Origin: Solirubrobacterales bacterium
Lineage (GTDB): Bacteria; Actinomycetota; Thermoleophilia; Solirubrobacterales; Thermoleophilaceae
Length of the DNA stretch: 63,605 nt
Direction of reading: 5' to 3'
Assembly: GCA_038202855.1 (NCBI GenBank)
Contig: JBBREO010000001.1
Span: 1-63,605, forward strand
The stretch's first letter is position 1. Every line of letters begins with the position of its first letter. Position numbers and translations under genes: made by a program. The notes beneath the pieces were generated by a model. That model was not told where the DNA came from, ran no database searches, and was given only the letters and a program-made list of their open reading frames with translations. Below, one piece after another: positions 10,939 to 30,225 of the stretch.

Positions 10939-10950
10939 CTGATACCGCGG

Positions 10951-10976
10951 CCGGATGGGGCATCGTGCCCATCCGG
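10951..10976. terminator. Hairpin between the convergent hydrolase and priA genes (candidate bidirectional terminator)
   Basis: CCGGATGGGGCA-TCG-TGCCCATCCGG forms an 11-bp stem with one bulged G. It lies in the 40-nt gap between the two stop codons. Confidence 0.5.
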
Positions 10977-10978
10977 AA

Positions 10979-13150: not shown

Positions 13151-13199
13151 AAGCCGGAATCTAGGTGGCGAAGCGGAAGGAGCGCCGGTCCGAGCCGGC

Positions 13200-13952: not shown

Positions 13953-13974
13953 GGCCCGTAGGCTAGTCGCGTCC

Positions 13975-15108
13975 ATGGCCACAGACTTCGAAGCCGAGGG
14001 CCTCCTGGAAGGCCTCGACGACCAGGCCAAGGAGGCCCGCGTGCGCCTGCTCGAGCAGCTCGAGGGCGACGGCGTGGGGCTGGACGAGCTGCGCGGCGCC
14101 TCCGAGGAGGGGCGGCTGGCGCTGGTGCCGGTGGAGCGGATCCTGGTGGGCGACCAGGACCGGCACACGCTCGCGGAGGTAGCCGAGTGCAGCGGCGTGG
14201 AGGCCGAGTTGCTCGAGCGCTACTGGCGCGCGATCGGGCTCGCGGTGGCCGACCCGGACGACGCGATGTTCCTGGACGCCGACATCGAGGCCGCCCGGCG
14301 CGTGGGGCAGCTGCGCGAGGCCGGCATGGACGATGAGTCGATCATCGAGATCGCCCGCGTGATGAGCAGCGGGCTCAACCCCGTGGCGGTGACCATCGCG
14401 GGCGCGTTCGCCTCCAACTACCTGCGGGAGGGCGACGACGAGGAGCGCCTGGCGCTGCGAATGGCCGAAGCGTCACGCGAGCTGCTGCCGCTGCTTGGCC
14501 CGGCGCTGGAGCACGGCTTGATGGTCCAGCAGCGTGCCCTGGTGCGCCAGGCCTCGGCGCTGGGCTCCTCGCTGGAGGAAGGCCGGTTGCCCGACGCGCA
14601 GGAGGTGGCGATCTGCTTCGCCGACCTGGTCGGCTTCACGCGCATGGGCGAGGGCGTGGACGCCAGCCAGCTTGGCGCCGTGGCCGCCCGACTCGAGGAC
14701 CTGGCCCGCGACGTGGCCGAGCCGCCGGTGCGGCTGGTCAAGATGATCGGCGACGAGGTGATGCTCCAGTCCAACGACACCAAGGCGCTGCTCGAGGCCG
14801 CGCTCTCGCTGCTCGAGGTCGCCGAGGCGGCGGACGAGGAGGAGGACTTCCCCGCGCTGACCATCGGTCTGGCCCAGGGCGAGGCGATCCAGCGCGGCGG
14901 CGACTGGTTCGGGCGCCCCGTGAACCTGGCCAGCCGCGTGACCGATCGCGCCCGCCCCGACAGCATCCTGGTCACCGAGGAGGTCAAGGACGCCGCCGGC
15001 GAGGACGACTACCGCTACTCCTTCGCCGGCGACCGCAAGCTCAAGGGCGTGGAAGGGCCGGTGAAGCTGTTCCGCGCTCGCCGCGCTTCAGACGACGAGG
15101 CGGAATAG
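13975..15108 (+). CDS. Class III adenylate/guanylate cyclase with an approx. 200-aa N-terminal domain
   Basis: The C-terminal cyclase blocks are ICFADLVGFT, KMIGDEVM and GDWFGRPVNLASRV. The start is either ATG 13975 or ATG 13951, and the latter would overlap the divergent methyltransferase start. Confidence 0.8.
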   Translation: MATDFEAEGLLEGLDDQAKEARVRLLEQLEGDGVGLDELRGASEEGRLALVPVERILVGDQDRHTLAEVAECSGVEAELLERYWRAIGLAVADPDDAMFLDADIEAARRVGQLREAGMDDESIIEIARVMSSGLNPVAVTIAGAFASNYLREGDDEERLALRMAEASRELLPLLGPALEHGLMVQQRALVRQASALGSSLEEGRLPDAQEVAICFADLVGFTRMGEGVDASQLGAVAARLEDLARDVAEPPVRLVKMIGDEVMLQSNDTKALLEAALSLLEVAEAADEEEDFPALTIGLAQGEAIQRGGDWFGRPVNLASRVTDRARPDSILVTEEVKDAAGEDDYRYSFAGDRKLKGVEGPVKLFRARRASDDEAE

Positions 15109-15117
15109 CCGTTTACC

Positions 15118-15187
15118 GACCGGCAGGGATGCCGGTCTGGTCGAGGGCGTCAGACCGGCAGGGATGCCGGTCTGGTCGAGGGCGTCA
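15118..15187. repeat. Two tandem 35-bp copies, each containing an 8-bp-stem hairpin (candidate bidirectional terminator)
   Basis: The unit GACCGGCAGGGATGCCGGTCTGGTCGAGGGCGTCA occurs at 15118..15152 and 15153..15187, and the two copies are identical. The stem is GACCGGCA/TGCCGGTC with a GGGA loop. The second copy contains the metK stop codon (15185-15187). Confidence 0.85.
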
Positions 15188-16429
15188 GACCGCGGCGCCC
15201 TCGGCGAGGCCGGCGGCCTCGCGCAGGGCGTCGGCCTTGTCCGTGTTCTCCCAGGTGAAGTCCTCGTCCTCGCGGCCGAAGTGGCCGTAGGCGGCGGTCT
15301 TCTGGTAGATCGGCCGGTGCAGGTCGAGCTCCTTGCGGAACGAGCCCGGGCGTAGGTCGAAGTGCTCGGACACCAGCTCGGCGATGCGCACCCGCGAGAT
15401 CTTCTCCGTGCCGAACGTCTCCGCGGTCACCGACACCGGGTGCGCGACGCCGATGGCGTAGGCCACCTGCACCTCGCAGCGGTCGGCCAGGCCGGCGGCC
15501 ACCACGTTCTTGGCCACCCAGCGGGCGGCGTAGGCGGCCGACCGGTCGACCTTCGACGGGTCCTTGCCCGAGAAGGCGCCACCGCCGTGGCGGGCCGAGC
15601 CGCCGTAGGTGTCGACGATGATCTTGCGCCCGGTCAGGCCGCAGTCGCCCACGGGACCCCCGATCACGAACTTGCCGGTCGGGTTGACCAGGAAGTTGGC
15701 CGCGCTGAACAGCTCGCCCTCGTCGTAGAGCTCCTCGGGCAGCGTGGGCTTGACCACGTGCTCCCACAGGTCGTCGCGGATAGTGGTGGCCGAGTCGACG
15801 CCCTCCGCGTGCTGGGTGGAGATCAGGACCTTCTCGACCTTGACCGGCACGCCGTCGCGGTAGCGGACGGTGACCTGGGTCTTGCCGTCGGGTCGCAGGT
15901 AGTCCACGACCTTCTGGCGGCGGATCTCGGCCAGGCGGTGGGAGAGCTTGTGGGCCAGAGCGATCGGCAGCGGCATCAGCTCGGGCGTCTCGCGCGTGGC
16001 GTAGCCGAACATCATGCCCTGGTCGCCGGCGCCGGCGATGTCCAGATCGTCGTCGTCGCCGGGGTCCGTGCGGTGCTCGAAGGCCTCGTTCACGCCCTGG
16101 GCGATGTCGGGGGACTGCTCGTCCACCGCGGTGATCACGGCGCAGGCGTCGCAGTCGAAGCCGTAGGCGGCGTCGTCGTAGCCGATCTTGCGGATCGTCT
16201 CGCGCGCGATCTTGGGGATGTCCACGTAGGCCTTGGTGCTGATCTCACCAGAGACCACCACGAGTCCCGTGTTCACCAGGGTCTCGCAGGCCACCCGGCT
16301 CTCGGGGTCCTCGGCCAGCACGGCGTCGAGGACGCCGTCGGAGATCTGGTCGGCCATCTTGTCGGGGTGGCCCTCGGTGACCGACTCTGAGGTGAACAGG
16401 TACTCGTTGTCTTGAAGATCGTTAGCCAT
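15185..16429 (-). CDS. metK: S-adenosylmethionine synthetase
   Basis: 414 aa, with the motifs [24 protein letters not shown] and [16 protein letters not shown]. Confidence 0.97.
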
Positions 16430-16478
16430 GAAGGGCGGAAGGGTAATGGATACCGCCGGAGTCGGGAATCCCGGCCGA

Positions 16479-17795
16479 CTATCCCCCCTTGCGCTTGTCT
16501 GCGCTCACCCGGAAGTCGATCACCAGCGGTACCCCCTCCAGGCCGAAGCGCTCGCGCAGCCGGTTCTCGAGAAAGTAGGCGTAGTCGCGGGTGATCAGCG
16601 AGCGGTCGTTGATCTGGACCGCAAAGCGCGGCGGGGAGACCTCGAACTGGGCCATGTAGTACATCCGCAGGCGCTTGCCGCGGGTGGCGGGAGGCTGGCG
16701 CGTCCCCTGCAGATCGGACAGGAAGGAGTTGAGCTCGGGGGTGGAGATGCGCTCGGCGGCGCGGTCGGCGATCGTCAGGGCCTCGGCCACCAGCCGCCGT
16801 AGCCCACGACCCGACTGGGCCGACACGGCCATCAGCCGCGGGCGCTGGCGCAGCCGCTTGGTCACGCGGGCGCGGGCGTCCTCCAGGTCGGTGTCGGTGG
16901 CGTCCCACTTGTTCAGCGCAATCACCGTCGCGCAGTCGTTCTTCATCGCCATCTCGGCGATCTTGAAGTCCTCGGTGGTCACCCCCTCGGTGGCGTCGCA
17001 CAGCACGACCGCCACCTGGGCGCGCTCTGCCGCGCGCTCCGAGCGCAGCTGGGCGTAGTAGTCGACGGTGCCCGCGACCTTGGTACGCCGGCGCAGCCCG
17101 GCGGTGTCCACCAGCACCACCGGCCGGCCGTCCACGTCGATCAGGGTGTCCACCGAGTCGCGCGTGGTGCCGGCGAAGTCGGCCACCACCACCCGCTCCT
17201 CGCCCAGCAGCTTGTTGACTAGCGAGGACTTGCCCACGTTGGGACGCCCGATCACCGCCAGGCGCACCGCCGGGTCCTCCTCCACCTCCGCTGGCGCGTC
17301 GGCCAGCGCGCCCACCACCCGGTCGAGCAGGTCCCCCGTGCCCAGTCCGTGCACCGCGCTCACGGCCACCGGGTCGCCCAGGCCGAGCGAGTAGAACTCC
17401 GCTGCTCCGGGGGTCAGGCGCACGTCGTCGACCTTGTTGGCGGCCACCACCACCGGCACCTTCGACGCCCGCAGCTCGGCGGCCAGCTCGCTGTCCCCAG
17501 GTCGCAGGCCGGCCACCGCGTCGACCACGAACACCGCCGCCTCGGCCTCGGCCAGCGCCGCCCGGGCCTGGGCCTGGACGGACTTGGCCAGGTCGGTCTC
17601 CTCGTCCATGTCCACGCCGCCGGTGTCCACGAGCAGGAAGTCGCGCCCGTTCCAGTCGGCGGCGATCTCCTTGCGGTCGCGGGTCACCCCCGCGGTCTCG
17701 TGCACCACCGCCTCGCGGGTGCCCGACAGGCGGTTGACCAGCGTCGACTTGCCCACGTTGGGGTAGCCGACGACGGCTACCTTGGGAGGCGCCAC
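16479..17795 (-). CDS. der: Ribosome-associated GTPase Der (EngA)
   Basis: It has two G domains (GYPNVGKST and GRPNVGKSS) and a KH-like C-terminus. The start is GTG. Confidence 0.95.
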
Positions 17796-17796
17796 G

Positions 17797-18630
17797 TCAG
17801 CCCGAGCCGGTCAGCTGCGTGCTCAGGTCCCAGAGCCGTCGCCGGGCCTCGTGGTCGTAGGCCTGGGGATGGGCCTCGGCCTCGCGCTGGCGGTCGAAGA
17901 AGCGCCCCGTCACGTCCTCCAGCTCGGGGGAGGTGACCAGCCGCGTGGTGGCCTCCACACCGGCCTCGAGCGTGTCCACCGAGCGGCCCCTCTCGTCGAG
18001 CACGATCTTCGTGGGCATGTAAGTGGCCGGGTGCAGGCTGTTCACGGTCACGCCTTGGCCGTCCAGGCGCTCGGCCAGCTCCATGCTCCATGTGATCTGG
18101 GCCAGCTTGGACTGGCTGTAGGCGCGCCCGCCGTCGTAGTCCTCGAGCAGGTTCGGGTCGTCGAAGTCGATCGGCGCCTGGCCCAGCGAGGCGACGTTGA
18201 CGATCCGGGAGGGCGCCGACTCGATCAGCAGGTCGAGCAGCTCGTTCGTGAGCGCGAAGCCGGCCAGGTAGTTGACGGCCAAGCGCAGCTCGAGCCCGTC
18301 GCGGCTCTCCTCGCGCTCGGTGGAGTCGGGTCTGCCCGAGCCAATTCCGGCGTTGTTGACCAGGACGTGCAGCTCGGGCTCGTCGCGGCGCACCTGGGCG
18401 GCCAGCTCGCGCACCTCGGCCAGCGAGGACAGGTCGGCCCGGTAGGTGCGGACGCGGTCGGCGCCGGCCAGCATCTCCACGTCGGCCTCGGCAGCGGCCA
18501 GGCGGTCGGGGTCGCGGCCGTGCATGAGCACGGTGGCGCCCTCGACGGCCAGGCGCTCGGCCACGGCGCGGCCCAGGCCGTCGGTGGCGCCGGTGACCAG
18601 GACGGTGGTGTTCTCAGGCGGTCGAATCAC
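17797..18630 (-). CDS. Short-chain dehydrogenase/reductase
   Basis: It has [12 protein letters not shown] and YSQSK motifs. The GTG start overlaps the cmk stop (GTGA). Confidence 0.85.
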
Positions 18631-19238
18631 GTCCTCGATCCAACCAGCTCGACGATCCGGCCGACCACTTCCTCGACGGCCAGCCCACTGGTGTCCAGCT
18701 CCACGGCGTCGGGGGCGGCGAGCAGCGGCGAGTGCTCGCGCTCGGAGTCCTGGGCGTCGCGCAGCGCCTGGTCGCGCATCACGGTGTCCACGTCGGCGCC
18801 CAGCTCTGCGGCCCGGCGGCGGGCCCGCTCGGCGGGGTCGGCGTTCAGGAAGACCTTCAGCGCGGCGTCGGGGGCCACCACGGTGCCGATGTCGCGGCCT
18901 TCGGCCACCCAGTCGCCCTCGGACATCAGCTCGCGCTGCTTGCGCACCAGGGCCGCGCGGACCTTGGGGTTGGTCGCCACCCGCGAGGCCGCCTCGGACA
19001 CCTCCGGGGCACGGATGGCGTCGGTCACGTCCTCGCCGTCGACCTCGACGCGATCGCCCAGCTCGACCTGCAGTGCCTCGGCGGCGTCGGAGGCGGCGCC
19101 CCCATCGCGCAGGAGCTTGAGGCCCACGGCGCGGTACATCGCCCCGGAGTCCAGGTAGGTGAAGCCGAGCGCCTGGGCCACGGCCCGGGCCACGGTGCTC
19201 TTGCCCGCGCCGGCGGGCCCGTCTATGGCGACGACCAT
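18627..19238 (-). CDS. cmk: Cytidylate kinase
   Basis: The N-terminus reads MVVAIDGPAGAGKSTVARAVA...LDSGAMYR. I trimmed track ORF 18627..19946 to the ATG at 19238, just downstream of the preceding gene's stop at 19259. Confidence 0.9.
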   Translation of the reverse strand: MVVAIDGPAGAGKSTVARAVAQALGFTYLDSGAMYRAVGLKLLRDGGAASDAAEALQVELGDRVEVDGEDVTDAIRAPEVSEAASRVATNPKVRAALVRKQRELMSEGDWVAEGRDIGTVVAPDAALKVFLNADPAERARRRAAELGADVDTVMRDQALRDAQDSEREHSPLLAAPDAVELDTSGLAVEEVVGRIVELVGSRT

Positions 19239-19258
19239 GGCGGTGAGGCTACTGGCGG

Positions 19259-20167
19259 TCAGCGCGGCGCCCAGGCCGGGTTCGAGCCGTCGAAGCTCTC
19301 CCCCCCGCCCGACACGTCGTCCACCAGGGTGGCGACGGTCCTGCCGTCCTGTGCCCGCGCCACGGTCACGCCGGGGCGGTCGTAGGCGATCAGCTTGCCG
19401 TCCGGCGAGTACACCGGGCTCGTGCAGCGCGAGCAGCGCACGATCCGGCGGGCGTGGCCCCCGTCGGCGTCCGCCGTGTAGATGCCACCGCGGCGGGCGA
19501 AGACGATCGCCTTCGCGCTGGCCGAGAAGCCGGGGTCGCGCCCGCCGGCACGGGTGATCCGCTTCAGCCCGCGGCCGGTGGCGGAGATCGTGTAGAGGTT
19601 GCCGGCGCGCTCGAAGGCGATCCGGTTGCGCGAGCCCCAGTCGGGGTCCGCTCCGCTTTTCACCAGGCGCCGCGCCTTGCGGGTGGCCAGGTCGTAGACG
19701 TACAGGCTGGTGCGCCCGCCCCTGCGCCCGGCGAAGACCACCTTGCGCCCCGACGGGGCGAACGAGGGCTGCGAGTCGTCGGAGGTCACGGCCGGCAGGG
19801 CTCGGTAGCCCGCGCCCGTCGAGCCGATCAGGGCCAGCGCGCGGCCGCTGTCGAACACCAGCTCGCGCCCGTCCCTGCGCCACGACGGGGTGCGGAAGTC
19901 GATCGTGCAGTCGCCGCTGATCGTCTTGCCGCCGCTGAGCTGGCACTCGCGCAGGAAGCGATCGGCCCGGCCGTCGGGCTGGACGGTGGCCAGCGCCCGG
20001 TACGAGGTCTTGGATCCGTCGTCGCCTATCCCCCGGCTGTGCAGGTCATAGGCCACGCGGCCGTTTCCCCCCTTGAACGTGGCCTGGGCCACCGAGGCGG
20101 GCAGGCAGAGGACGGCGGCCAAGGCCAGGAGGATCGGAGCGCGGCGGGTCATCGAAGCGGATAACAA
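19259..20167 (-). CDS. Secreted TolB-like beta-propeller (PD40/WD40-like repeat) protein
   Basis: It has a signal peptide (APILLALAAVLCLPASVAQA) and repeated P-x-W/F-S-P-D/S-G-R..I.F blocks. Confidence 0.7.
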   Translation of the reverse strand: MLSASMTRRAPILLALAAVLCLPASVAQATFKGGNGRVAYDLHSRGIGDDGSKTSYRALATVQPDGRADRFLRECQLSGGKTISGDCTIDFRTPSWRRDGRELVFDSGRALALIGSTGAGYRALPAVTSDDSQPSFAPSGRKVVFAGRRGGRTSLYVYDLATRKARRLVKSGADPDWGSRNRIAFERAGNLYTISATGRGLKRITRAGGRDPGFSASAKAIVFARRGGIYTADADGGHARRIVRCSRCTSPVYSPDGKLIAYDRPGVTVARAQDGRTVATLVDDVSGGGESFDGSNPAWAPR

Positions 20168-20194
20168 CGCATGGAGGCGATCGGTGCGGCGCCC

Positions 20195-21496
20195 TCAGCT
20201 CAAGAGAGCGCGCAGGTCGTCCTCGAAGTCGGGATAGGAGACGGCGGCGGCCTCCATGCCCCGCACCTCGACGCCGTCTCGGGAGGCCAGCCCCGCCACG
20301 GCGCCGAGCATGGCCAGGCGGTGATCTCCCCCGGAATCCATCGTGCCCCCGCGCAGCGGCTCGCCCGTGCCCCGCACCACGAAGCCGTCGCCCACGTCCT
20401 CGATGTCGGCCCCGAGCGCCGTCAGGGCGCCGACCACCGCCGCGATCCGGTCGGACTCCTTGTGGCGCAGCTCGGCCGCCCCCCGGACCACCGTCTCACC
20501 GTCCGCGAAGGCGCCCAGCAGGGCGACCAGGGTCAGCTCGTCGATGGCCAGCGGCACCTCGTCGGGCGTGACCTCGGTGCCCTCCAGGGGCGCGTGGGCC
20601 ACGTCGAGGTCGCCGACCGGCTCGGCGTCGGCCTCGGTGTGCGGCGGCTCGAGGTCGCCCACGATCACCGCGCCCATGCGCCGGGCGATGCGGAAGAAGG
20701 CGGTGCGCGTCCAGTTGAGCCCGAGGCCGCCGATCAGCAGCCGCGAGTGGGGCACCAGGCAGGCCGCGGCAGCCAGGAAGGCGGCCGAGGAGGGGTCACC
20801 GGGCACGGTGATCGTGTCCAGCTCCAGCTCGTCGACCTGGCTCACGGTGGCGCGCAGGCCGTCGCGCTGGAAGGGCACGCGCGCGTTTCGCATCAGACGC
20901 TCGGTGTGGTCGCGGCTCATCGTCGCCTCGGTGATCGAGGTGCTGCCCGAGGCGAGCATGCCCGCGATCAGCACGCAGGACTTGACCTGGGCGCTGGGCA
21001 CGGGCAGCTCGTAGTCGATGCCGGTCAGGTCGCGACCCTGAACCACCAGCGGGGTGAAGCGCTCCTCGCGGGCGCTCACGGCGGCCCCCATCATCCGCAG
21101 CGGCTGGACCACGCGATCCACGGGCCGGCGGCGGATCGACTCGTCGCCGTCCAGGCTCCAGTTGCCACCGGTCTGCCCGGCCAGCCAGCCCGGCAGCAGC
21201 CGCAGCAGGGTGCCCGAGTTGCCCACGTCGATGTGGCCGCCGGTGGCCTCGAGCGCCGCGTGGAGGCCGACCCCGCGGATGGTCAGGTCGGCGCCGGACT
21301 CGTCGATGCCGGCGCCCAGGCTGAGCAGCGCGGCGAGGGTGGACAGGGTGTCGGCCGAGCGCAGGTAGTTGCGGATCGTCACGGGCTGGTCGGCCATCGC
21401 GCCGAACAGCGCCGCCCGGTGCGAGATCGACTTGTCCGGGGGCGCGAGGTACTCGCCCCGCAGCGCGCCCGAGGGCTCGAAGCGGACGCCGCTCAC
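20195..21496 (-). CDS. aroA: 3-phosphoshikimate 1-carboxyvinyltransferase (EPSP synthase)
   Basis: 433 aa with PPDKSISHRA, GNSGTLLRLL and the HRLAM region. The start is GTG at 21496. Confidence 0.95.
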   Translation of the reverse strand: MSGVRFEPSGALRGEYLAPPDKSISHRAALFGAMADQPVTIRNYLRSADTLSTLAALLSLGAGIDESGADLTIRGVGLHAALEATGGHIDVGNSGTLLRLLPGWLAGQTGGNWSLDGDESIRRRPVDRVVQPLRMMGAAVSAREERFTPLVVQGRDLTGIDYELPVPSAQVKSCVLIAGMLASGSTSITEATMSRDHTERLMRNARVPFQRDGLRATVSQVDELELDTITVPGDPSSAAFLAAAACLVPHSRLLIGGLGLNWTRTAFFRIARRMGAVIVGDLEPPHTEADAEPVGDLDVAHAPLEGTEVTPDEVPLAIDELTLVALLGAFADGETVVRGAAELRHKESDRIAAVVGALTALGADIEDVGDGFVVRGTGEPLRGGTMDSGGDHRLAMLGAVAGLASRDGVEVRGMEAAAVSYPDFEDDLRALLS

Positions 21497-21524
21497 GGAA
21501 GAACCTCGCTCACGGGAGAACCTC
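21491..21524 (-). repeat. Tandem 17-nt duplication of the aroA translation-initiation region
   Basis: The copies are GCTCACGGAAGAACCTC (21491..21507) and GCTCACGGGAGAACCTC (21508..21524), differing at 1 position. On the minus strand each copy reads GAGGTTCTyCCGTGAGC, which is an SD followed by GTG. Confidence 0.8.
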
Positions 21525-21556
21525 GCTGCGCACCCGGCCGAGCCGGCTGCTTGCGC

Positions 21557-22615
21557 TCACGACTCGGCCACGGCGAAGCCCAGGGCGCCGATCAACCCGC
21601 GCGCACGCTCGGCCTCCTCGTCCCCGGCGATCCACAGCGTGATCGCCCCCGAGCGCATGTCGGGCGCCGGCGCCAGCGCCAGATCGACGATGTTCACCCC
21701 GGCCTTGCCGAGCTCGAGCGCCACCTCGGCGACGATACCGGGCCGGTTGGGCACCGTTAGGCGCAACTCGTGAACCCTTCCCACGCGCGACTCGGCGGCC
21801 AGCAGGCGGGCGCGCTGGGCCGCCGCCTCGTCCTGCCAGGCGGCCAAGCCGGCGCGGTCGCCGGCGCGCAGATCGGCCCCCACGGCGCGCAGGCGCTCCC
21901 CTGCCGCGTCGATCTCGTCGGCCAGCGCCAGCCGGTTGGCCATGTAGATGTCGGTCCAGATCGAGGGGTTGGCCCCCGCCACCCGGGTGGCGTCGCGAAA
22001 GCTCGGCCCGATCCGGGGCGGCTCGCCCTCGGCGGCAACCTGGGCCACCAGCACGTTGGCCAGCACGTGGGGCAGGTGGCTCACCGCGGCAAGCAACCGG
22101 TCGTGGGCCGCGGCCTCGATGGCCACGGGACCGGCCCCGAGGCTCACTATCAGCCGGTGCAGGCGCTCGTAGAGCACGCCCGAGGAGCCGGGCGTGGGGG
22201 TCAGGTACCAGACGGCGCCCTGGAACAGGTCGGCGCGGGCGTGCTCCACGCCCGAGGTCTCCGCCCCGGCGATCGGGTGGCCGCCCACGAAGCGCTCGTC
22301 GGCCACCGAGTCGACCAGCCGCTCCTTCACCGACCCCACATCGGTGACCACGCAGTCGGCCGCCGCGGCTGCCAACGCGGCCACCACCTGTTCGGGCACG
22401 GCACCGACGGGTGCGCAGCAGAAGCAGGCCTGGGCGCCCTCCAGCGCCTCGTCCAGCGAGCCGGCGGCGTGGTCGATCGCCCCCAGCGCCCGCGCGGCCT
22501 CCAGCCGCTCGGGGCTGCGCCCGAAGCCCGTCACGGTCACGTCCTCGAGCTGCTCGCGGGCGGCCAGGCCGATCGAGCCGCCGATCAGCCCGACCCCGAG
22601 CACGGCGATCCTCAC
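21557..22615 (-). CDS. tyrA: Prephenate dehydrogenase with a C-terminal ACT domain
   Basis: It has an N-terminal Rossmann fold (VRIAVLGVGLIGGSIG), a HPIAG motif and an ACT-like tail (LRLTVPNRPGIVAEVALELG). I trimmed it to the GTG at 22615, which overlaps the upstream stop (GTGA). Confidence 0.85.
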   Translation of the reverse strand: MRIAVLGVGLIGGSIGLAAREQLEDVTVTGFGRSPERLEAARALGAIDHAAGSLDEALEGAQACFCCAPVGAVPEQVVAALAAAAADCVVTDVGSVKERLVDSVADERFVGGHPIAGAETSGVEHARADLFQGAVWYLTPTPGSSGVLYERLHRLIVSLGAGPVAIEAAAHDRLLAAVSHLPHVLANVLVAQVAAEGEPPRIGPSFRDATRVAGANPSIWTDIYMANRLALADEIDAAGERLRAVGADLRAGDRAGLAAWQDEAAAQRARLLAAESRVGRVHELRLTVPNRPGIVAEVALELGKAGVNIVDLALAPAPDMRSGAITLWIAGDEEAERARGLIGALGFAVAES

Positions 22616-23688
22616 GGGGAGTCGCGGCGTGCGCGCACGGCCGCGGCCAGGCCGTCGAGCACCTCGACCGTGGTGTCCCAGTCCATGCAGGCGTCGGTGA
22701 TCGACTGCCCGTAGGTGAGCGGGCCGCCGAGGTCCTGGCGCCCACCGACCAGGAAGGACTCGAGCATCGTGCCCACGACCGCGCGGCTGCCCGCCGAGAT
22801 CTGGCCGGCCACGTCGCCCGCCACCTCGCGCTGGCGGGCGGGGTCCTTGCCCGAGTTGTCGTGCGACGCGTCGATCACCACCCGTTCGGGCAGCCCGGCC
22901 GCCCGCAGCTGGGCCAGCGCGTCGCCCACCGGGCCCGAGCCGTAGTTCTGCAGGTTGCGTCCGCCGCGCAGGATGATGTGGCCGTCGGGGTTGCCCGTGG
23001 TGCGCAGGATGGCCGGGGTGCCGGTGCGATCGACGCCGGTGAAGGCGTGCGGCGCGGCGGCCGCGCGAACGGCGTCGACGGCCACCTGGACGTTGCCGTC
23101 CGTGCCGTTCTTGAAGCCGACCGGCATCGACAGCCCCGAGCCCAGCTGGCGATGGATCTGGCTCTCGGTCGTGCGCGCTCCGATGGCTCCCCACACCACC
23201 GTGTCGGAGATGTACTGCGGGATGATCGGGTCGAGGAACTCGCAGCCCACCGGCAGGCCCAGCTCGAGCACCTCGAGGAGCAGCGTGCGGGCCATCTTCA
23301 GACCCGTGTTCACGTCGCCGGAGTCGTCCAGGTGGGGGTCGTTGATCATCCCCTTCCACCCCGTCGTGGTGCGCGGCTTCTCGAAGTAGACCCGCATGGC
23401 CACGAGCAGATCCGATTCCAGCTCGGCCGCTCGCGCGGCCAGCCGGGCGGCGTAGTCGCGCGCGGCCTCCACATCGTGGACGCTGCAGGGGCCGACCACG
23501 ACGAGCAGGCGGTCGTCCTCGCGGTCGAGGATTCGCGTGACCCCCTCGCGGCCCCGGACCACCACCTCGGCATGGGCCGGGGTCAGCGGTAGCCGCGCCT
23601 GGAGGTCGGAGGGGCGATCGAGCGCCTCGATGCGCTCGATCCGCAGGTCACGGATCGCGCCCAGGTCGGTGGAGGGCGGCACGGTCAC
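22612..23688 (-). CDS. aroG: DAHP synthase, class I-alpha (AroF/G/H type)
   Basis: 358 aa with GPCSVHD, RVYFEKPRTTTGWKGMINDP, MPVGFKNGTDG and IDASHDNS blocks. The GTG at 23688 comes directly after the upstream stop. Confidence 0.9.
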   Translation of the reverse strand: MTVPPSTDLGAIRDLRIERIEALDRPSDLQARLPLTPAHAEVVVRGREGVTRILDREDDRLLVVVGPCSVHDVEAARDYAARLAARAAELESDLLVAMRVYFEKPRTTTGWKGMINDPHLDDSGDVNTGLKMARTLLLEVLELGLPVGCEFLDPIIPQYISDTVVWGAIGARTTESQIHRQLGSGLSMPVGFKNGTDGNVQVAVDAVRAAAAPHAFTGVDRTGTPAILRTTGNPDGHIILRGGRNLQNYGSGPVGDALAQLRAAGLPERVVIDASHDNSGKDPARQREVAGDVAGQISAGSRAVVGTMLESFLVGGRQDLGGPLTYGQSITDACMDWDTTVEVLDGLAAAVRARRDSP

Positions 23689-23689
23689 C

Positions 23690-24463
23690 TCAGGCCGCCG
23701 CCGCCACCGGCTCGCGTTCGGCCGCCGCCCGGGCCACCGCCTCGACCCTGCGCAGGTAGTCGGCGAACCCGGCCGTGGGCAGCTGCTGGGCGCCGTCGCA
23801 GATGGCGCTCTCCGGGTCGGGATGCACCTCCACGATGATGCCGTCCGCGCCCGCCGCAGCGGCGGCCATCGACATGGCCGGCACCAGCGACCGGTCACCC
23901 GCGGCGTGACTGGGATCGACGATCACCGGCAGGCCGGTGCGCTGCTTGAGCACGGGCACGGCCATCAGGTCGAGCGTGAAGCGGTAGCCGGTCTCGAAGG
24001 TGCGGATTCCGCGCTCGCACAGGATCACGTCCGTATTGCCCTCCTTGAGCACGTACTCGGCGGCCATCAGCAGCTCGTCGAGGGTGGCCGATATGCCGCG
24101 CTTGATCACCACGGGCAGCCCCGCTCGGCCGATCTCGGTGAGCAGTCCGTAGTTCTGCATGTTGCGCGCGCCCACCTGCACCACGTCGGCCACCGCGGCC
24201 ACCGCGTCGAGGTCGCGCACGTCGAGCAGCTCGGTGACGACGGGCAAGCCGGTCTCGGCCTTGGCCTCGGCGAGCAGGCGCAGGCCCTCCTCTCCCAGAC
24301 CCTGGAACGAGTAGGGCGAGGTGCGTGGCTTGTAGGCGCCGCCGCGCAGCATGGCGGCGCCGGCCGCCCTCACGGCCCGCGCGGTCTCGAGCAGCGTGTC
24401 GCGCGACTCGACGGTGCACGGCCCGGCGATGGTGGTGAAGCCGGTGGTTCTCAGTGATCCCAT
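23690..24463 (-). CDS. DAHP synthase, class I-beta (KDO8PS-like, core-only form)
   Basis: About 257 aa with [34 protein letters not shown] and VDPSHA blocks. It has no fused regulatory or chorismate mutase domain. I chose the ATG at 24463 because of the SD GAGGAAAG. The track start is TTG at 24475. Confidence 0.85.
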
Positions 24464-24567
24464 TGCTTTCCTCAAGCTAGACGTTGGCGATGCGGTGCTG
24501 CGGGGGTCGGCGCCCGGACGGGACTCGGATGTCGGTCGGCGGCAGGAGCGCTGCCGTGGCCGGACGC

Positions 24568-24663
24568 CTAGCTAAATCGCCAATACGCCGCGAAGGCACG
24601 CCAGGAGTCGCCGCGGAGGGCGCTCGTGCGAGGGGCGTGCGTGGTGCTGCGCGGCATCGGCAT
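24568..24663 (-). promoter_or_regulatory. Candidate attenuator leader peptide rich in Trp/Phe/Tyr codons
   Basis: The 31 codons read [31 protein letters not shown] followed by TAG. It ends 105 nt upstream of the first DAHP synthase start. The ORF is too short to appear in the track. Confidence 0.55.
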
Positions 24664-24731
24664 GACTTCTAGCACGGATCGGCGGTCGGGGCCAGCGCTT
24701 GAGCGGCGGCGCGGCGGGTACAGGGGCGTCC

Positions 24732-25598
24732 ATGATCGCCATGCTCGGCACGGGAACGATGGGCGCGCCGATGGCGCGCAACCTGAAGGCGGCGGGCCTG
24801 GACGTGCGCGTCTGGAACCGCACGCCGGAGAAGGCGCAACCGCTGGCCGACGACGGGATCGAGGTGGTCGGCTCGGCCGAGGAGGCGGTGCGCGGCGCCG
24901 ACATCGTGATCACGGTGCTCTCCGACGGCGACGCGGTGACCGAAGCGATGGAGGACGGCGGCGCCCTGGCCGCGATGGCCGACGACGCCCTCTGGGTGCA
25001 GATGTCCACCGTCGGCATCGCCGCCACCGAGGCGCTCGCCGCGCTGGCCGAGGAGCGCGCGGTGCCCTTCGTCGACGCCCCGGTGCTGGGCACCAAGGCC
25101 CCCGCCGAGCAGGGCAAGCTGCAGGTGCTGGCCTCCGGACCCGAGGACCAGCGAGAGCGCTGCGCGCCCGTGTTCGACGCCGTGGGCGCCTCCACCCGTT
25201 GGCTCGGCGAGGCCGGCGCCGGCACGCGCGCCAAGCTGGTGCTCAACTCCTGGCTGCTCTCCCTCACCGAGAGCGTGGCCGAGACCGTGGCCTTCGCCGA
25301 GGCCATCGACGTCGACCCGAAGATCTTCCTGGAGACCATCGAGGCCGGCCCGCTCGACTCGGCCTACGCCCAGACGAAGGGCGGGGCGATGCTCGAGCGC
25401 TCCTTCGACCCCTCCTTCTCCCTGTCGCTTGCGCGCAAGGACGCCGGCCTGGTGCTCGAGGCGGCCGAGCGCCACGACCAGGAGATGCCCCTGGTCGAGG
25501 TGACCGAGCGTCAGATGAGCCGCGCCGTCGGCGACGGCCACGGCGACGAGGACATGGCGGCCACCTACTGGGCCAGCGCGCCGGAGCGCCAGGGCTAG
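24732..25598 (+). CDS. NAD(P)-dependent oxidoreductase, 3-hydroxyisobutyrate/6-phosphogluconate dehydrogenase-like
   Basis: The N-terminus is MIAMLGTGTMGAPMARNL. The length and helical C-terminal domain are typical of the family. I trimmed it to the ATG at 24732. Confidence 0.85.
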   Translation: MIAMLGTGTMGAPMARNLKAAGLDVRVWNRTPEKAQPLADDGIEVVGSAEEAVRGADIVITVLSDGDAVTEAMEDGGALAAMADDALWVQMSTVGIAATEALAALAEERAVPFVDAPVLGTKAPAEQGKLQVLASGPEDQRERCAPVFDAVGASTRWLGEAGAGTRAKLVLNSWLLSLTESVAETVAFAEAIDVDPKIFLETIEAGPLDSAYAQTKGGAMLERSFDPSFSLSLARKDAGLVLEAAERHDQEMPLVEVTERQMSRAVGDGHGDEDMAATYWASAPERQG

Positions 25599-26674
25599 AG
25601 CAGCGCGTCCAGCGCCGTCAGGAAGGCGTCGTTCTCGGCGCGGGTGCCGTATGTCACCCGCAGCCTCCCCTCCTCGCCGAGCGCCGAGCCCGCCCGCACG
25701 ATCACGCCGCGCTCGGCCAGGCCGTCCACCACCGCGTGCTCGTCGCGGTCGCCCAGGGAGATCCACGAGAAGTTGGCCTGGCTCTCGGTGGACTCCAGCC
25801 CGCGCTCGGCCAGCTCGGTCTCCATGTGCACACGCTCGATCACCGTGGCCTCCACCCGGCGGGCGATCTCGTCGCCGTGGCGGAGCGCCTCGACGGCCGC
25901 GGCCTGGGCCAGGGTGTTCACCGAGAAGGGCTGACGCACGTGGTCGATCGCGCGCCGGAAGCGCTCGGGGCCCAGCGCGTAGCCCGCGCGCAGGCCACAC
26001 AGCCCGTAGATCTTGGAGAACGTGCGCAGCACGATCAGGTTGGAGTGGCGGCCGGCCAGCTCGACCGAGTCGGCCGGGTCCTGGAGCAGGTTGAACTCCA
26101 CGTAGGCCTCGTCGAGGATCACCGCCACGTGGTCTGGCACTCCGGCCACGAAGGCGGCGATTTCGTCCGGGGGCAGCGCGGTGGCCGTCGGGTTGTTGGG
26201 GTTGCAGACCAGCACGAGGCGGGTGGCGGCGGTGATCTCGCGGGCCATGGCGTCGAGGTCGTGGCGGCCCTCGGAGTCCAGCGGAACGCGGATCTCGGTG
26301 GCGCCCGACTGGGCGGCGAGCATCGGATAGACCGAGAAGGAGGGCCAGGCGTAGACCAGCTCGGCGCCCGGCTCGAGCAGGGCGTCGGCGGCGGCGAGCA
26401 GGATCTCGCAGGAGCCGTTGCCGACGGTCACGCGATCGGCGCCCACGCCCGTGCGGTCCGAGATCGCCTTGCGCAGCGCCGCCTTGTCGGGGTCGGGGTA
26501 GCGGTTGAGAGTCTCGAGCTGGCCCTGGATCGCTCCCACCACGGCGGCCGGGGGGCCGAACGGGCTCTCGTTGGAGGCCAGCTTGACCAGCTCACCGCCG
26601 TGCGCGTAGGAGCTCGCCTGGGGGTAGGCGGGAATGTCCTCCAGCCTGCGGTTGAACTCGATTCCCGGGCTCAC
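25595..26674 (-). CDS. hisC: Histidinol-phosphate/aromatic aminotransferase (class II PLP)
   Basis: It has KLASNESPFGPP, NPNNPT and the FSKIYGLCGLRAGY lysine block. The GTG at 26674 overlaps the aroH stop. Its context next to chorismate mutase suggests an aromatic role. Confidence 0.85.
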   Translation of the reverse strand: MSPGIEFNRRLEDIPAYPQASSYAHGGELVKLASNESPFGPPAAVVGAIQGQLETLNRYPDPDKAALRKAISDRTGVGADRVTVGNGSCEILLAAADALLEPGAELVYAWPSFSVYPMLAAQSGATEIRVPLDSEGRHDLDAMAREITAATRLVLVCNPNNPTATALPPDEIAAFVAGVPDHVAVILDEAYVEFNLLQDPADSVELAGRHSNLIVLRTFSKIYGLCGLRAGYALGPERFRRAIDHVRQPFSVNTLAQAAAVEALRHGDEIARRVEATVIERVHMETELAERGLESTESQANFSWISLGDRDEHAVVDGLAERGVIVRAGSALGEEGRLRVTYGTRAENDAFLTALDALL

Positions 26675-27036
26675 TGGGCCCCCTCCAGGTCGCGGCGCAG
26701 GGCCACGGCCTCGCGCAGATAGACGTGGCGGGCCGGCGTGTCCGGCTCGGCGTAGGCGTGCAGCATCATCCGGATCACCCGCGGCAGCGAGCCGGGCACG
26801 GGCATCTCGCGCGTGCACAGCAGCGGCACGGCGCTCAGCCCCATCCGGCGCGCGGCCACGGCGGGGAACTCGGCGTCCAGGTCGTCGGTGCAGGTGAAGA
26901 TGCAGGAGACCATGTCCTCGACGCGCAGGCCGTTTCGGTCGATCACCTCGCGCATGAGCTCGTCCGTCGCCTCCAGGATGGCGTCCGCCTCGTTCGCGGC
27001 GACCGTCGTCGCCCCTCTCAGTGCCCGCAGCCTCAC
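26671..27036 (-). CDS. aroH: Chorismate mutase, AroH (monofunctional) type
   Basis: 121 aa. It reads VRLRALRGATTV...SCIFTCTDDL...PLLCTREM, typical of AroH. The GTG at 27036 overlaps the rluB stop. Confidence 0.85.
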   Translation of the reverse strand: MRLRALRGATTVAANEADAILEATDELMREVIDRNGLRVEDMVSCIFTCTDDLDAEFPAVAARRMGLSAVPLLCTREMPVPGSLPRVIRMMLHAYAEPDTPARHVYLREAVALRRDLEGAQ

Positions 27037-27746
27037 GCGGCGGGATTGTTCCAGCCCGCCGCCGCGCGCAGGCGATCGACCTCTTCCTCGTCCAGCCGGC
27101 GCGACTCGCCCTCGGGCAGCCGGTCGAGGGTGAGGGGCCCGAAGGCCACGCGCTCCAGGGCGATCACGCGGTGGCCGACGGCCTCGATCATGCGCCGCAC
27201 CTGGCGCTTGCGCCCCTCGGAGATCACCACCTCCAGCGACCCGGGCTCGATCATCCGCACCCTGGCCGGGTAGGTCTTGCCGTCCTCCAACTCCACCCCG
27301 CCGCGCAGCCGGTCCAGCGCCGATGGGGAGACGTCGGCGGGCAAGACGATGGCGCGGTAGACCTTCTCCACGCCGTAGCGGGGATGGGTCAGGCGGTCGG
27401 CCAGCTCGCCGTCGTTGGTCAAGAGGATCAGGCCGGTGGTGTCCGCGTCCAGGCGCCCGACGGGGTAGAGGCGGCGTTGGGAGGCGACGTACTCGACCAC
27501 CGTGCGCCGCCCGTGGGTGTCCGCGGCGGTGGACACCACCCCCGCCGGCTTGTGCAGCGCGTGCACCTCGCGCGGCTCGGGCCCCACCGGCCGCCCGTCC
27601 ACCTCCACGCCGCTCGACTCGTCCACGTCGCGGGCCGGGTCGTCGATCGGCTGGCCGGCCACGCTCACCCGCCCCTCGGCGATCATCCGCTCCGAGGCGC
27701 GCCGTGAGGCGACGCCGGAGTGGGCCAGGAACTTGGCGAGGCGCAT
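27033..27746 (-). CDS. rluB: Pseudouridine synthase, RluB/RsuA family
   Basis: It has an S4 domain (MRLAKFLAHSGVASRR) and the catalytic GRLDADTTGL motif. Confidence 0.9.
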   Translation of the reverse strand: MRLAKFLAHSGVASRRASERMIAEGRVSVAGQPIDDPARDVDESSGVEVDGRPVGPEPREVHALHKPAGVVSTAADTHGRRTVVEYVASQRRLYPVGRLDADTTGLILLTNDGELADRLTHPRYGVEKVYRAIVLPADVSPSALDRLRGGVELEDGKTYPARVRMIEPGSLEVVISEGRKRQVRRMIEAVGHRVIALERVAFGPLTLDRLPEGESRRLDEEEVDRLRAAAGWNNPAA

Positions 27747-27773
27747 GGGCCAAGGCTGGCACAGCCGGGTCGG

Positions 27774-28037
27774 TCAGCCCGCGGCCGCGCCCCGAACCAC
27801 CGCGATCTGCTCCTCGCGCCGGCCCGGAGCCAGCAGGCCGGCTCGCTCCAGCTCCCCCGCGCGGGCCAGCACCAGCGGCCCCAGCGGCCCGGTGCGGCTG
27901 TCGACCACCTGTGCGTCCAAGCCCGCGGTCTCCATATCCGCGATCGTCTGCTCGATGTCGCAGAGAGACGACTGGACGATCAGCAGCGCGCCCCCGGGGG
28001 CGAGCCGCGCCGGGGCCGCGTCGATCCCGATGCCACG
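27774..28037 (-). pseudogene. C-terminal remnant of a HemK/small-domain type methyltransferase, with no N-terminal half present
   Basis: The last approx. 87 codons of track ORF 27774..29123 read RGIGIDAAPARLAPGGALLIVQSS...EEQIAVVRG, which looks like a methyltransferase C-terminus. Everything upstream is occupied by the well-supported plus-strand ybdK. Confidence 0.4.
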
Positions 28038-28049
28038 CGCGGGAAACCG

Positions 28050-29174
28050 ATGAGCGACGAGCAGCACGACGCCGACCGCCTGCGCACGGTCCTGGACCAG
28101 CCCGCCGCGCTCAGCGTGGGCCTCGAGGAGGAGGTGATGCTGCTCGACCGCGAGACGCTCGACCTCGCCCCGGTGGCCGCGCAGGTCCTGGCCCGCCTGG
28201 ACGGCGACGGGCGCTTCAAGCCCGAGCTGCCCGCCGCCCAGGTCGAGCTGATCACCCCGCCCAGCGAGGGCGTCGCGCAAGCCGGGCAGTCGCTGGCCGG
28301 GGCCCGCGCCGACCTGGAGGCGGCCGCTGCCGGGCTGGCGCTGCCCGCCGCGGCCGGGGTGCACCCGTTCACCCCGGCCGAAGGGGTGCTCAACCCCGAC
28401 GAGCGCTACCGCCACACGCGCGAGGAGTACGGCCCCGTGGCCCGCCGCCAGCTCGTCTTCGGACTTCACGTGCACGTCCGCGTCAACGGGGCCGAACGCG
28501 CCCTGGCCGTGTACAACGCGCTGCGCTCCTACCTCCCCGATCTGGCCGCCCTGGGAGCCAACGCGCCCTTCATCGCCGGGCGCGACTCCGGGATGGCCTC
28601 CGTGCGCCCCAAGATCTCCGAGTTGCTGCCCCGACAGGGGGTGCCGCCCGCCTTCGCCGACCTGGAGGAGTTGGTGGCCGCCCTCGAGTGGGGCGCGGCA
28701 GCGGGCGCGCTGCGCCACCGCGGGATGTGGTGGTGGGAGCTGCGGCTGCACCCGGAGTTCGGCACCGTGGAGGTGCGCGTGCCCGACCAGCAGACCACCG
28801 TGAATGACAGCGAGGCCGTCGCCGCGCTGACCCAATGCCTCGTGCGCCGGCTGGCCGATCGCCACGACGCGGGCCAGCCGCTGCCCGCGCATCCCACCTG
28901 GCGGATCGCCGAGAACCGCTGGTCGGCGGCCCGCCACGGCCTCGACGGGCAGATGGCCGACCTGGACAGCGGCGAGCCGCGCCCGACCCGCGAACGGCTG
29001 CGCGGGCTCGTCGACTCGCTCGCGCCCGAAGCCGACGCGCTGGACGCGCGTGCGGCCCTCGATCACGCGCGCGAGCTCGTGGAGCGAAACGGGGCCGAAC
29101 GCCAGCGCGAGGTGGCCGAGCACGGCGATCTGAGCGGCGTGGTACGGGACCTGGCCGAGCGATTCCGCGCCTGA
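28050..29174 (+). CDS. ybdK: Carboxylate-amine ligase, glutamate-cysteine ligase family 2 (YbdK type)
   Basis: 374 aa with an N-terminal LSVGLEEEVMLLD block, GVHPF, HVHV and WWELRLHPEFGTVEVRVPD. I trimmed it to the ATG at 28050. Confidence 0.85.
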   Translation: MSDEQHDADRLRTVLDQPAALSVGLEEEVMLLDRETLDLAPVAAQVLARLDGDGRFKPELPAAQVELITPPSEGVAQAGQSLAGARADLEAAAAGLALPAAAGVHPFTPAEGVLNPDERYRHTREEYGPVARRQLVFGLHVHVRVNGAERALAVYNALRSYLPDLAALGANAPFIAGRDSGMASVRPKISELLPRQGVPPAFADLEELVAALEWGAAAGALRHRGMWWWELRLHPEFGTVEVRVPDQQTTVNDSEAVAALTQCLVRRLADRHDAGQPLPAHPTWRIAENRWSAARHGLDGQMADLDSGEPRPTRERLRGLVDSLAPEADALDARAALDHARELVERNGAERQREVAEHGDLSGVVRDLAERFRA

Positions 29175-29220
29175 CCCGCCAGCGCGGATTAGAAGCGCTC
29201 GAACCGGGAATGAGCCAGCC

Positions 29221-30225
29221 GTGCCCCCCCTGCCCGCATCCCGGGGACCCCTCAGCGAGGGCCTACTGGAGGAGCTGCGGGAGCGCCCCCACGCGCTCTC
29301 GCTCGCCGTGTCCCCCAGCGCTGATCCGCTCGCCGACGAGGACGCGCAGCTGGCTCTGTACCTCTGCTATGAGCTGCACTACCGCGGGCTGGACGGAGTC
29401 GACGAGCGCTGGGAGTGGGAGCCGTCGCTGCTGGCGCTGCGCGCCCGGCTGGAGAACGAATTCGAGCGGGCCGTGCGCGAGGCGGCGCCGGTATCGCGAG
29501 GCTGCCCGCCGCCGTCGGAGTCGGACACCGCCCTGCGGGCGATCGCGGACGCCGACACCGGCCCTTCGCTCTCCCTCTTCCTCGCCCGCGAGGGCAGCGA
29601 CGAGCAGGTGCTCGAGTTCATGGTGCACCGGTCGGCGTACCAGCTCAAGGAGGCCGATCCACACACCTGGGCGCTGCCCCGCCTGAGTGGCCAGCCCAAG
29701 GCCGCGATGGTCGAGATCCAGGCCGACGAGTACGGCGGCGGTCGCTCCGACCGCATCCACGCGGAGCTGTACGCCCGGTCGCTGGAGGCCGTCGGCCTGA
29801 GCTCGGAGTACGGCTTCTACCTCGATCACATCCCCGCCCCGACCCTGGCCACGGTCAACCTGATGTCGATGTTCGGGCTGCACCGCCGCCTGCGGGGGGC
29901 GCTCGTGGGCCATCTGGCCCTGTTCGAGATGACCTCGTCGATTCCCAACCGCCGCTACGGCGACGCGCTGCGCCGGCTGGGGCGCACGGAGGCGACCGAG
30001 TTCTTCGACGAGCACGTGGAGGCCGACGCCGTGCACGAGAACATCGCGGCCGTCGACCTGGCCGGCGGCCTGATGCGCCAGGAGCCCACGCTGGGCCCCG
30101 ACGTGATGTTCGGGGCCGCGGCCCTCGGTGAGCTGGATCGGCGCTGGGCCGACCACCTGCTGGAGCGCTGGGCGGCGGGCGTGAGCTCGCTGCTCAGGCC
30201 GCTGCGCGAGCCCGCGACCGCCTAG
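29221..30225 (+). CDS. Iron-containing redox enzyme family protein (heme-oxygenase-like fold)
   Basis: 334 aa and all-helical. It has spaced acidic/His motifs (EFMVHRS, EIQADEYGGG, HAELY, LFEMTS, EHVEADAVHEN) as expected for the Haem_oxygenas_2 / HO-like di-iron family. The assignment is made from memory of that family. Confidence 0.7.
   Translation: MPPLPASRGPLSEGLLEELRERPHALSLAVSPSADPLADEDAQLALYLCYELHYRGLDGVDERWEWEPSLLALRARLENEFERAVREAAPVSRGCPPPSESDTALRAIADADTGPSLSLFLAREGSDEQVLEFMVHRSAYQLKEADPHTWALPRLSGQPKAAMVEIQADEYGGGRSDRIHAELYARSLEAVGLSSEYGFYLDHIPAPTLATVNLMSMFGLHRRLRGALVGHLALFEMTSSIPNRRYGDALRRLGRTEATEFFDEHVEADAVHENIAAVDLAGGLMRQEPTLGPDVMFGAAALGELDRRWADHLLERWAAGVSSLLRPLREPATA

Follow-up and report, generated by a model that had tools for sequence, protein, structure and literature searches.

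The window analysed here, a stretch of 63,605 nt from a Solirubrobacterales bacterium (contig JBBREO010000001.1 of assembly GCA_038202855.1), contains a divergent intergenic region of 268 nt (positions 24464-24731) 5' of a minus-strand operon for 3-deoxy-D-arabino-heptulosonate 7-phosphate (DAHP) synthase, TyrA and AroA. The 5' leader of the DAHP synthase-tyrA-aroA mRNA probably carries an attenuator, with ribosomes stalling at the aromatic codons of a short open reading frame (mini-ORF) as the sensor, a helix at its stop codon (B:B') as the switch, and the termination factor Rho as the read-out. Stalling on the mini-ORF most likely reports a shortage of Trp, Phe or Tyr. A read-out of the open leader by Rho is favoured, as the least certain step of the model. 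An aromatic leader attenuator had been proposed in a preliminary description of the same DNA, and comparative data support the core of that interpretation while correcting details.

The principle of attenuation is already known; the leader family and its terminator-less RNA switch appear to be undescribed. Entry into the aromatic pathway appears to be tied by one small ORF to the charging of all three aromatic tRNAs, and the tie holds for either class of DAHP synthase, with or without an allosteric domain. The family comprises at least 74 distinct leaders from genomes and a metagenome scan; its size, its invariant core and the lack of an intrinsic terminator make it a clean test case for the read-out of attenuation in high-GC bacteria. 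To our knowledge, no gene regulation has been studied in the Solirubrobacterales, which are abundant soil actinobacteria known almost only from metagenomes. The leader is a well-supported candidate regulatory element for this group.

The aromatic leader reading frame and its conservation

The preliminary description placed a mini-ORF encoding a 31-aa peptide on the minus strand (ATG 24663 to TAG 24570-24568), with five aromatic codons (W, F, Y, W, F) among the last 11, and a Shine-Dalgarno (SD) sequence, GAGGAAAG, at 24473-24466, upstream of the ATG of the first DAHP synthase gene; all of this is read from the sequence as described. The spacer between the mini-ORF and that gene counts 104 nt instead of the 105 nt given there. 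The start has to be moved to ATG 24657, which is conserved, because ATG 24663 lies only 2 nt past a -10-like hexamer and the closest relatives lack it. The window contains 1176 stop-to-stop segments of 11 or more codons, of which only 2 reach an aromatic density of five in the last 11. TAT and TTT had been called scarce, and indeed they make up 7 of 156 Tyr codons (4.5%) and 11 of 238 Phe codons (4.6%) in 23 confident ORFs of the window.

Related loci were retrieved by homology to the DAHP synthase protein and thus independently of the leader. The preliminary description had staked its interpretation on conservation of the mini-ORF, and of the 36 Solirubrobacterales loci with the best DAHP synthase matches, 34 have a same-strand mini-ORF 5' of the gene, with too little upstream sequence to judge in one of the other two. 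Several more distant loci also carry one. The ORF ends with an aromatic-rich stretch followed by (W/S/A)-R-F-x-stop. The closest relatives by DAHP synthase homology are uncultured Solirubrobacterales (class Thermoleophilia), whose enzymes are 83-87% identical, also core-only, and encoded next to the same divergent neighbour. Start and frame are kept in these relatives, and the mini-ORF has the full 29 codons in three loci (L081, L082 and L204) and 28 codons in two (L205 and L207). The N-terminal residues drift, and the C-terminal SWRAFA(A/S)YWRFS is kept with synonymous changes (GCC/GCG, TTC/TTT).

The aromatic codons are not only conserved but specific to the frame: across 40 loci, the 14 codons before CGA contain 169 of them when read in frame, and 7 and 19 when read in the remaining frames. 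Trp, Phe and Tyr are all present in each of these 40 leaders. Across the 74 distinct leaders, aromatic codons are most frequent at positions -4 to -11 relative to the stop, and the N-terminal half is nearly devoid of them. Codon choice in the leaders also differs from that of the window genes: UAU accounts for 44% of the Tyr codons (4.5% in the genes) and UUU for 22% of the variable Phe codons (less than 5% in the genes). The leader lies in every case 5' of a DAHP synthase-tyrA-aroA operon, whichever class of DAHP synthase leads, and it is also present where the divergent gene is absent (L206). Distant DAHP synthase loci of Thermoleophilia (L034, L038, L042, L044 and others) are all without the leader, and the family is therefore clade-restricted. 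About two thirds of the 120 matches to a 14-base pattern in the metagenome scan were discarded as chance, on the grounds of low GC content, lack of an aromatic ORF and a weak B:B'.

An extended -10-like element is conserved in the family 5' of the mini-ORF, exactly 8 nt before ATG in the window and its closest group and 7-14 nt in the family. The candidate -35 hexamer of this promoter (P1) aligns with CTTGCC in L081 and L082, and its counterparts in relatives (TTGACT, TCGACT, TGGACT or TTGCCC) occur at the same distance of 16-17 nt. A scan for consensus sigma-70 promoters called no canonical promoter at the region, and P1 was found solely by comparing relatives. From this comparison we infer a leader promoter whose transcripts begin at ATG 24657 or in its immediate vicinity. 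The leader mRNA is probably leaderless or nearly so, because no SD sequence is found 5' of the mini-ORF and its start codon coincides with the expected transcription start site or is about 2 nt away at most.

The invariant 3' end and the helix at the stop codon

In 39 loci retrieved through the DAHP synthase protein, the 15-nt motif CGATTTNNNTAGGCG has exactly one copy each, located on the gene strand; the window has a single copy, versus 0.05 expected, and the motif provides a simple annotation marker for these operons. The rare codons CGA and UUU show zero synonymous variation, and the last sense codon alone varies (AGC, AUC, ACG, CGC or AAC), always keeping A..C. The same block forms a weak hairpin, H1 (24583-24579 paired with 24572-24568, loop GAUUUA), which comprises 8 bp in most relatives (CGCCUGGC-GAUUUA-GCUAGGCG) and never varies informatively.

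The three pairings proposed in the preliminary description all exist at the positions given there, and that between GGCGUCCGG and CCGGGCGCC (B:B') is confirmed by covariation. B:B' is present in all 28 fully analysed loci, with energies of -17 to -29 kcal/mol (RNAduplex), and also in the RNAalifold consensus. Among 46 distinct sequences, 93.5% of the cells are paired versus 34-43% with the partner slid, in an alignment that was fitted with RNAduplex and favours pairing; the 26 double-change cells (CUCGG:CCGAG versus UCCGG:CCGGA) were matched by none of 500 shuffles. H1 and B:B' are mutually exclusive, as GGCG is part of both the 3' arm of H1 and the 5' strand of B. The CGGCAG/CUGCCG hairpin inside the B domain has a counterpart of different sequence in relatives: L081 and L082 have another hairpin at the same spot, and the relatives carry one or more hairpins there. 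The leader as a whole shows no excess stability in folding compared with shuffled sequences (z of +0.49 and -0.07), which is not telling because folding energy is uninformative in sequence of 73% GC, the GC content of the window.

The layout had been called classic, which holds for the leader ORF, the aromatic codons and the mutually exclusive helices and fails for the terminator hairpin with its U-tract. No U-tract terminator is present in region 24464-24731, and the 28 spacers are all without a visible U-run. A 3:4 terminator built on B' was rejected because none of the downstream partners of B' outperformed shuffles. Canonical terminators of hairpin and U-run are absent from both strands of 20 kb (10000-29999), compared with 2.3 expected from shuffles. 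Canonical intrinsic terminators seem to be avoided in this genome, and their absence from the leader is therefore not informative on transcriptional control. The RNA between B' and the SD sequence of the window is rich in C (0.50) and poor in G (0.26). The skew (C-G)/(C+G) of the leader RNA in the family is about +0.15 and positive in 24-27 of 28 loci, versus -0.06 in coding sequence; the skew of the window leader (+0.17) falls into the top 5% of 200-nt windows. B:B' may serve to hide this C-rich RNA.

Proposed mechanism, alternatives and related systems

The promoter would set the start of the transcript at or next to ATG 24657, and the 29-codon leader peptide would be translated first. Its last third is filled with Trp, Phe and Tyr codons, several of which are rare and presumably read by wobble, so that a scarcity of charged aromatic tRNAs would stall the ribosome 4-11 codons before the stop. 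The invariant CGA-UUU-NNN spacer fixes the distance between UGG, the last of the regulatory codons, and the stop at three codons, and the front edge of a ribosome waiting at this UGG, estimated from typical ribosome footprints, would be just short of the first pair of B:B'. With the ribosome stalled, B:B' (24568-24560 with 24517-24509) would be closed around the inner hairpin; this state is taken as ON because the polarity would otherwise be wrong for a biosynthetic operon. A ribosome at the stop codon would melt and cover the 5' strand of B, and after its release, H1 would trap that strand in most relatives, leaving B' and the C-rich RNA around it single-stranded. The open C-rich leader could then act as a Rho loading site, and transcription would be stopped before or within the first gene. 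Rho is favoured for this step because there is neither a U-tract terminator nor a partner for B'.

A more far-reaching proposal is that the leader represents a terminator-less attenuator in which the invariant UGG-CGA-UUU-NNN-UAG-GCG places the stalled or terminating ribosome with single-nucleotide precision relative to the stop-abutting helix, and either Rho or an RNase that attacks the exposed GAUUUA loop would read whether the domain is open or closed; we put it forward tentatively and consider it more doubtful than probable. If true, it would be the first amino-acid-sensing, factor-dependent leader-peptide attenuator described in Actinomycetota, and a single sensor would integrate the supply of Trp, Phe and Tyr at the entry of the shikimate pathway.

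The main rival retains the sensor and moves the read-out to translation. The aromatic-codon segment UUGGCGAU, once freed, would pair with AUCGCCAA next to the ribosome-binding site, stacked on B:B', and lower initiation, whereas a stalled ribosome covering that segment would leave the ribosome-binding site open. The architecture matches that of Ms5788A, a mycobacterial polycysteine leaderless small ORF (sORF) whose Cys tract pairs with the SD region and whose regulation has been shown to be translational (bioRxiv 10.1101/834739): a leaderless sORF of 90 nt that carries the regulatory codons at its 3' end is followed by a spacer of about 97 nt, and a long duplex extends to the vicinity of the SD sequence. 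A kinetic window would not be needed. The pairing, here termed A:A', was among those of the preliminary description, and it stands insofar as it is part of the minimum free energy (MFE) fold of the window and remains complementary in close relatives (L081, L082, L204 and L205), where it is kept via one-sided changes. The partner also tracks the leader sequence in the window group (AUCGCCAA, UCGCCAGU, UCGCCGAU); in L035 it is GCGAAUAC, located between the SD sequence and AUG, and in L001, L013, L016 and L019 it is CCAGGCG..AGAAAGG, which includes the SD sequence. However, A:A' is not above shuffles (z of -0.7 in the window, family mean of -0.8, only 4 of 28 loci below -2), its position varies between -3 and -55 relative to AUG, and a complementary partner is absent from loci of the I-alpha type, where the counterpart of A' does not match the leader, and from the L024/L027/L031 group; it was therefore rejected as a universal helix. 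Masking of the SD sequence was rejected as well. In partition functions calculated with ribosome footprints at three positions, its accessibility showed no consistent change; a modelled stalled ribosome increased it in 12 loci and decreased it in 11, with no rise in the window. The translational read-out is a possibility that we regard as rather improbable.

The remaining alternatives are weaker. Termination at a GC-rich spacer helix without a U-tract, with B:B' as the antiterminator, would follow the logic of 1:2 (H1) versus 2:3 (B:B') known from trp and phe attenuators; no canonical terminator was found in 20 kb of the window, so the lineage may terminate differently, and relatives with long spacers have extra hairpins after B'. 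It is nevertheless unlikely, as there is no conserved hairpin 3' of B' and no partner of B' above shuffles, and the gap between B' and the start codon in the window measures only 45 nt and holds no stable hairpin. B:B' itself is excluded as a terminator since it would form on stalling, which is the wrong polarity. It is very unlikely that the mini-ORF is untranslated and its aromatic codons incidental, the block being either an RNA site for a protein or ligand, or a DNA operator that also serves the divergent dehydrogenase gene. Conservation of the ORF 3' end at the nucleotide level without synonymous variation is typical of RNA or DNA sites, no SD sequence precedes the ORF, and the region is a divergent promoter region. 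Yet the variable part upstream of the invariant block keeps its aromatic codons in one frame while the sequence drifts, the ORF is open in relatives (28-29 codons in the window group, an in-frame start after a promoter-like element in the wider family), the element also occurs without the divergent gene (L206), and no Rfam family matches. An arrest peptide of the TnaC type, in which a free amino acid would cause stalling at the stop codon through the C-terminal W-R-F-x-stop, is scarcely credible. The invariant end has a fixed distance to the stop in all leaders, and the stop codon abuts the C-rich leader, as it does the rut site in tna, but induction by excess would be the wrong polarity for a biosynthetic operon. 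Moreover, the last residue varies (S/I/T/R/N) although the nucleotides keep A..C, and some members have S, A or R in place of W, which puts the constraint on the RNA and not on the peptide.

Several points weigh against the favoured combination of aromatic-codon stalling, B:B' switch and Rho read-out. No pairing could be established that would account for the invariance of CGAUUU, and the H1 stem is only 5 bp long in the window and its close relatives. B:B' should re-form at equilibrium after release of the ribosome, and the Rho read-out therefore needs a kinetic window. The C skew is moderate; the +0.17 of the window is about 1.4 standard deviations above the mean of gene upstream regions. 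The -10-like hexamer of P1 is without the usual final T, and many relatives have a conserved element, [G/C]TAnnnT (GTAGAGT, CTAGAGT, GTACGAT and others), about 25-32 nt 5' of the first gene; in L013, L019 and L113, for example, it is followed by YUCCAGG and the SD sequence. This element is closer to the actinobacterial -10 consensus than P1 is and could act as a second promoter bypassing the leader. Its counterpart in the window is TAGCTT (24474-24479), and the element is not conserved in the closest relatives of the window.

Among known systems, the leaders trpL and pheL of Escherichia coli share the short ORF between promoter and first biosynthetic gene, the stop codon beside the alternative 1:2 and 2:3 helices, and the presumed signal, stalling on uncharged tRNA. 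By contrast, the present leader has no 3:4 terminator hairpin or U-tract and no SD sequence, and is probably leaderless; it mixes all three aromatic amino acids, precedes the entry enzyme of the common pathway rather than a terminal branch, and has an 18-nt core that is invariant at the nucleotide level. It is not filed as a classical attenuator because a terminator was looked for and not found. Searches against Rfam 15 with the window and four related loci gave no match at gathering score (Trp_leader and Phe_leader included), and there was only noise at E-values up to 10 in region 24300-24900. The literature searched contained no account for this lineage, nor of actinobacterial DAHP synthase leaders beyond aroR.

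According to two reviews, aroR of Corynebacterium glutamicum (Neshat et al. 2014) lies upstream of aroF and increases expression upon ribosome stalling under Phe limitation; it contains a contiguous Phe-Tyr-Phe, does not respond to Tyr, and is considered transcriptional or translational depending on the review (PMC11802643, PMC4046766). Both systems are actinobacterial, with an aromatic leader peptide 5' of a DAHP synthase gene. Compared by description only, aroR differs in that the present leaders have 4-7 dispersed W/F/Y codons that include Trp; aroF is of class I-alpha, whereas the first gene here is either I-beta or I-alpha. The similarity to Ms5788A extends to the sORF of about 30 codons at the mRNA 5' end (a placement predicted for the present leader from the distance of the -10-like hexamer to ATG 24657) with regulatory codons at its 3' end, the leaderless state being predicted in the present case, and to a spacer of about 100 nt, a long and very stable leader fold, and the lack of an intrinsic terminator. 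The systems differ in the amino acid sensed; pairing with the SD region is weak and not universal in the present family, whose universal element is the helix at the stop codon.

In the tnaC-tnaA leader of E. coli and the mgtL-mgtA and corA leaders of Salmonella, the position of the ribosome on the leader ORF gates a C-rich stretch for Rho. The former senses free Trp, the mgt leaders sense proline and Mg2+, and all of them are proteobacterial. They share with the present leader that no intrinsic terminator is needed; the involvement of Rho is in our case merely suggested by composition and the lack of alternatives. Aromatic mini-ORFs (RFFSFAFYF and SWFRYFWFFYF) also occur about 80-140 nt 5' of genes for I-beta DAHP synthases with an N-terminal ferredoxin-like (FL) domain in Gemmatimonadales (L073) and Planctomycetaceae (L071). 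In the former (L073:3413-3600), MHRARFFSFAFYFGSPGGRSRVGVRG and a stop are followed by a hairpin (GGGCUCCCGG..CCGGGGGCCC) and a U-run (GUUUCGUUUU); in the latter (L071:4493-4720), MKRSWFRYFWFFYFTGLCPGAGGIS and a stop are followed by a hairpin (GCCCUGAGA..UCUCGGGGC) and UUUUUU. Unlike the present family, both have a clear GC hairpin with U-run and no CGAUUU..UAGGCG motif; they are also without a match in Rfam.

The operon and its neighbourhood

The coordinates of the leader elements and of the genes are compiled in Table 1. The operon had been described as DAHP synthase-DAHP synthase-tyrA, to which aroA is now added; the same operon, with one or both DAHP synthases, lies 3' of the leader in relatives. 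The match of the I-beta enzyme to PRK08673 covers only part of the model, and its N-terminal regulatory domain is therefore missing. The preliminary description had seen the leader as a stand-in for this allosteric domain, a view that does not hold because FL-domain I-beta enzymes (PF18152), core-only I-beta enzymes and I-alpha enzymes all follow the leader. A decayed FL domain in the intergenic region was rejected, as tblastn of three such domains against 24400-24800 produced only noise (E-values of at least 0.05 in a 400-nt database).

Table 1. Elements of the leader region and genes of the downstream operon (positions in the window)
Feature	Position	Strand	Basis
Candidate -35 hexamer of promoter P1, TGGCCC	24689-24694	minus	17 nt 5' of the -10-like hexamer
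Extended -10-like element, TGC-TAGAAG (family consensus TGn-TACAAM)	24666-24674	minus	family conservation
Leader mini-ORF, 29 codons and UAG	24568-24657	minus	frame and length kept in relatives
Regulatory codon run: UGG 24603-24601, UUC 24594-24592, UAU 24585-24583, UGG 24582-24580	24580-24603	minus	frame-specific aromatic codons
Invariant leader 3' end, UGG CGA UUU AGC UAG GCG, including rare CGA and UUU and weak hairpin H1	24565-24582	minus	family alignment
Helix B, 5' strand GGCGUCCGG, opening with the G of the stop codon	24560-24568	minus	pairs with 24517-24509
Variable hairpin inside the B domain, CGGCAG-CGCUC-CUGCCG	24540-24556	minus	MFE and centroid folds
Helix B', 3' strand CCGGGCGCC	24509-24517	minus	covariation
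C-rich, G-poor tract after B', GACCCCCGCAGCACCGC	24492-24508	minus	composition
A', AUCGCCAA(CGUC), complementary to UUGGCGAU (24583-24576) and GGCGU (24589-24585); tentative	24480-24491	minus	MFE fold
SD sequence GAGGAAAG (24473-24466) and ATG (24463-24461) of the first regulated gene	24461-24473	minus	read from sequence
Regulated operon, whole (candidate)	20195-24463	minus	genes abut or overlap
I-beta DAHP synthase, core-only, 257 aa	24463-23690	minus	Pfam/NCBIfam; PRK08673 positions 94-334 of 338
I-alpha DAHP synthase, aroFGH type	23688-22612	minus	Pfam/NCBIfam
tyrA with ACT domain	22615-21557	minus	Pfam/NCBIfam
aroA	21496-20195	minus	Pfam/NCBIfam

A tandem arrangement, in which an I-beta gene without FL domain is directly followed by an I-alpha gene, is found in a small clade (the window, L204, L205, L207 and L208); other members of the leader family have a single class of DAHP synthase in this place. 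Nearly the same five codons open the FL-domain I-beta genes (ATGATGATCGTGATG, MMIVM) and the unrelated I-alpha genes (ATGWTSATCGGSATG, M[MFI]IGM) that come first after the leader, as seen in L003:4719-4733, L113, L143 and L152. The likeness suggests either that leader and initial codons travelled together as a single cassette or that the regulatory element takes in these bases of the gene. In L083, protein P0001 (positions 21-1358, 445 aa) scores higher against the window DAHP synthase than the window protein does against itself; it has two DAHP_synth_1 matches after the FL domain, which may reflect a partial internal duplication, and 20 nt of upstream sequence only.

The divergent neighbour on the plus strand, starting at 24732, is a dehydrogenase gene of the NAD_binding_2 type. 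A second aromatic-dense ORF tail in the window (40094-40148) was rejected as a leader; it is antisense to the gcvH-gcvP spacer and built of ACCAG repeats. In the spacer itself (40097-40147, minus strand), an 8-nt unit with ACCAG at its end is repeated in tandem about six times, immediately ahead of the gcvP start. The minus strand also encodes, at 35849-36841 and 11 kb from the leader, a 330-aa class I tRNA synthetase of the Trp/Tyr family.

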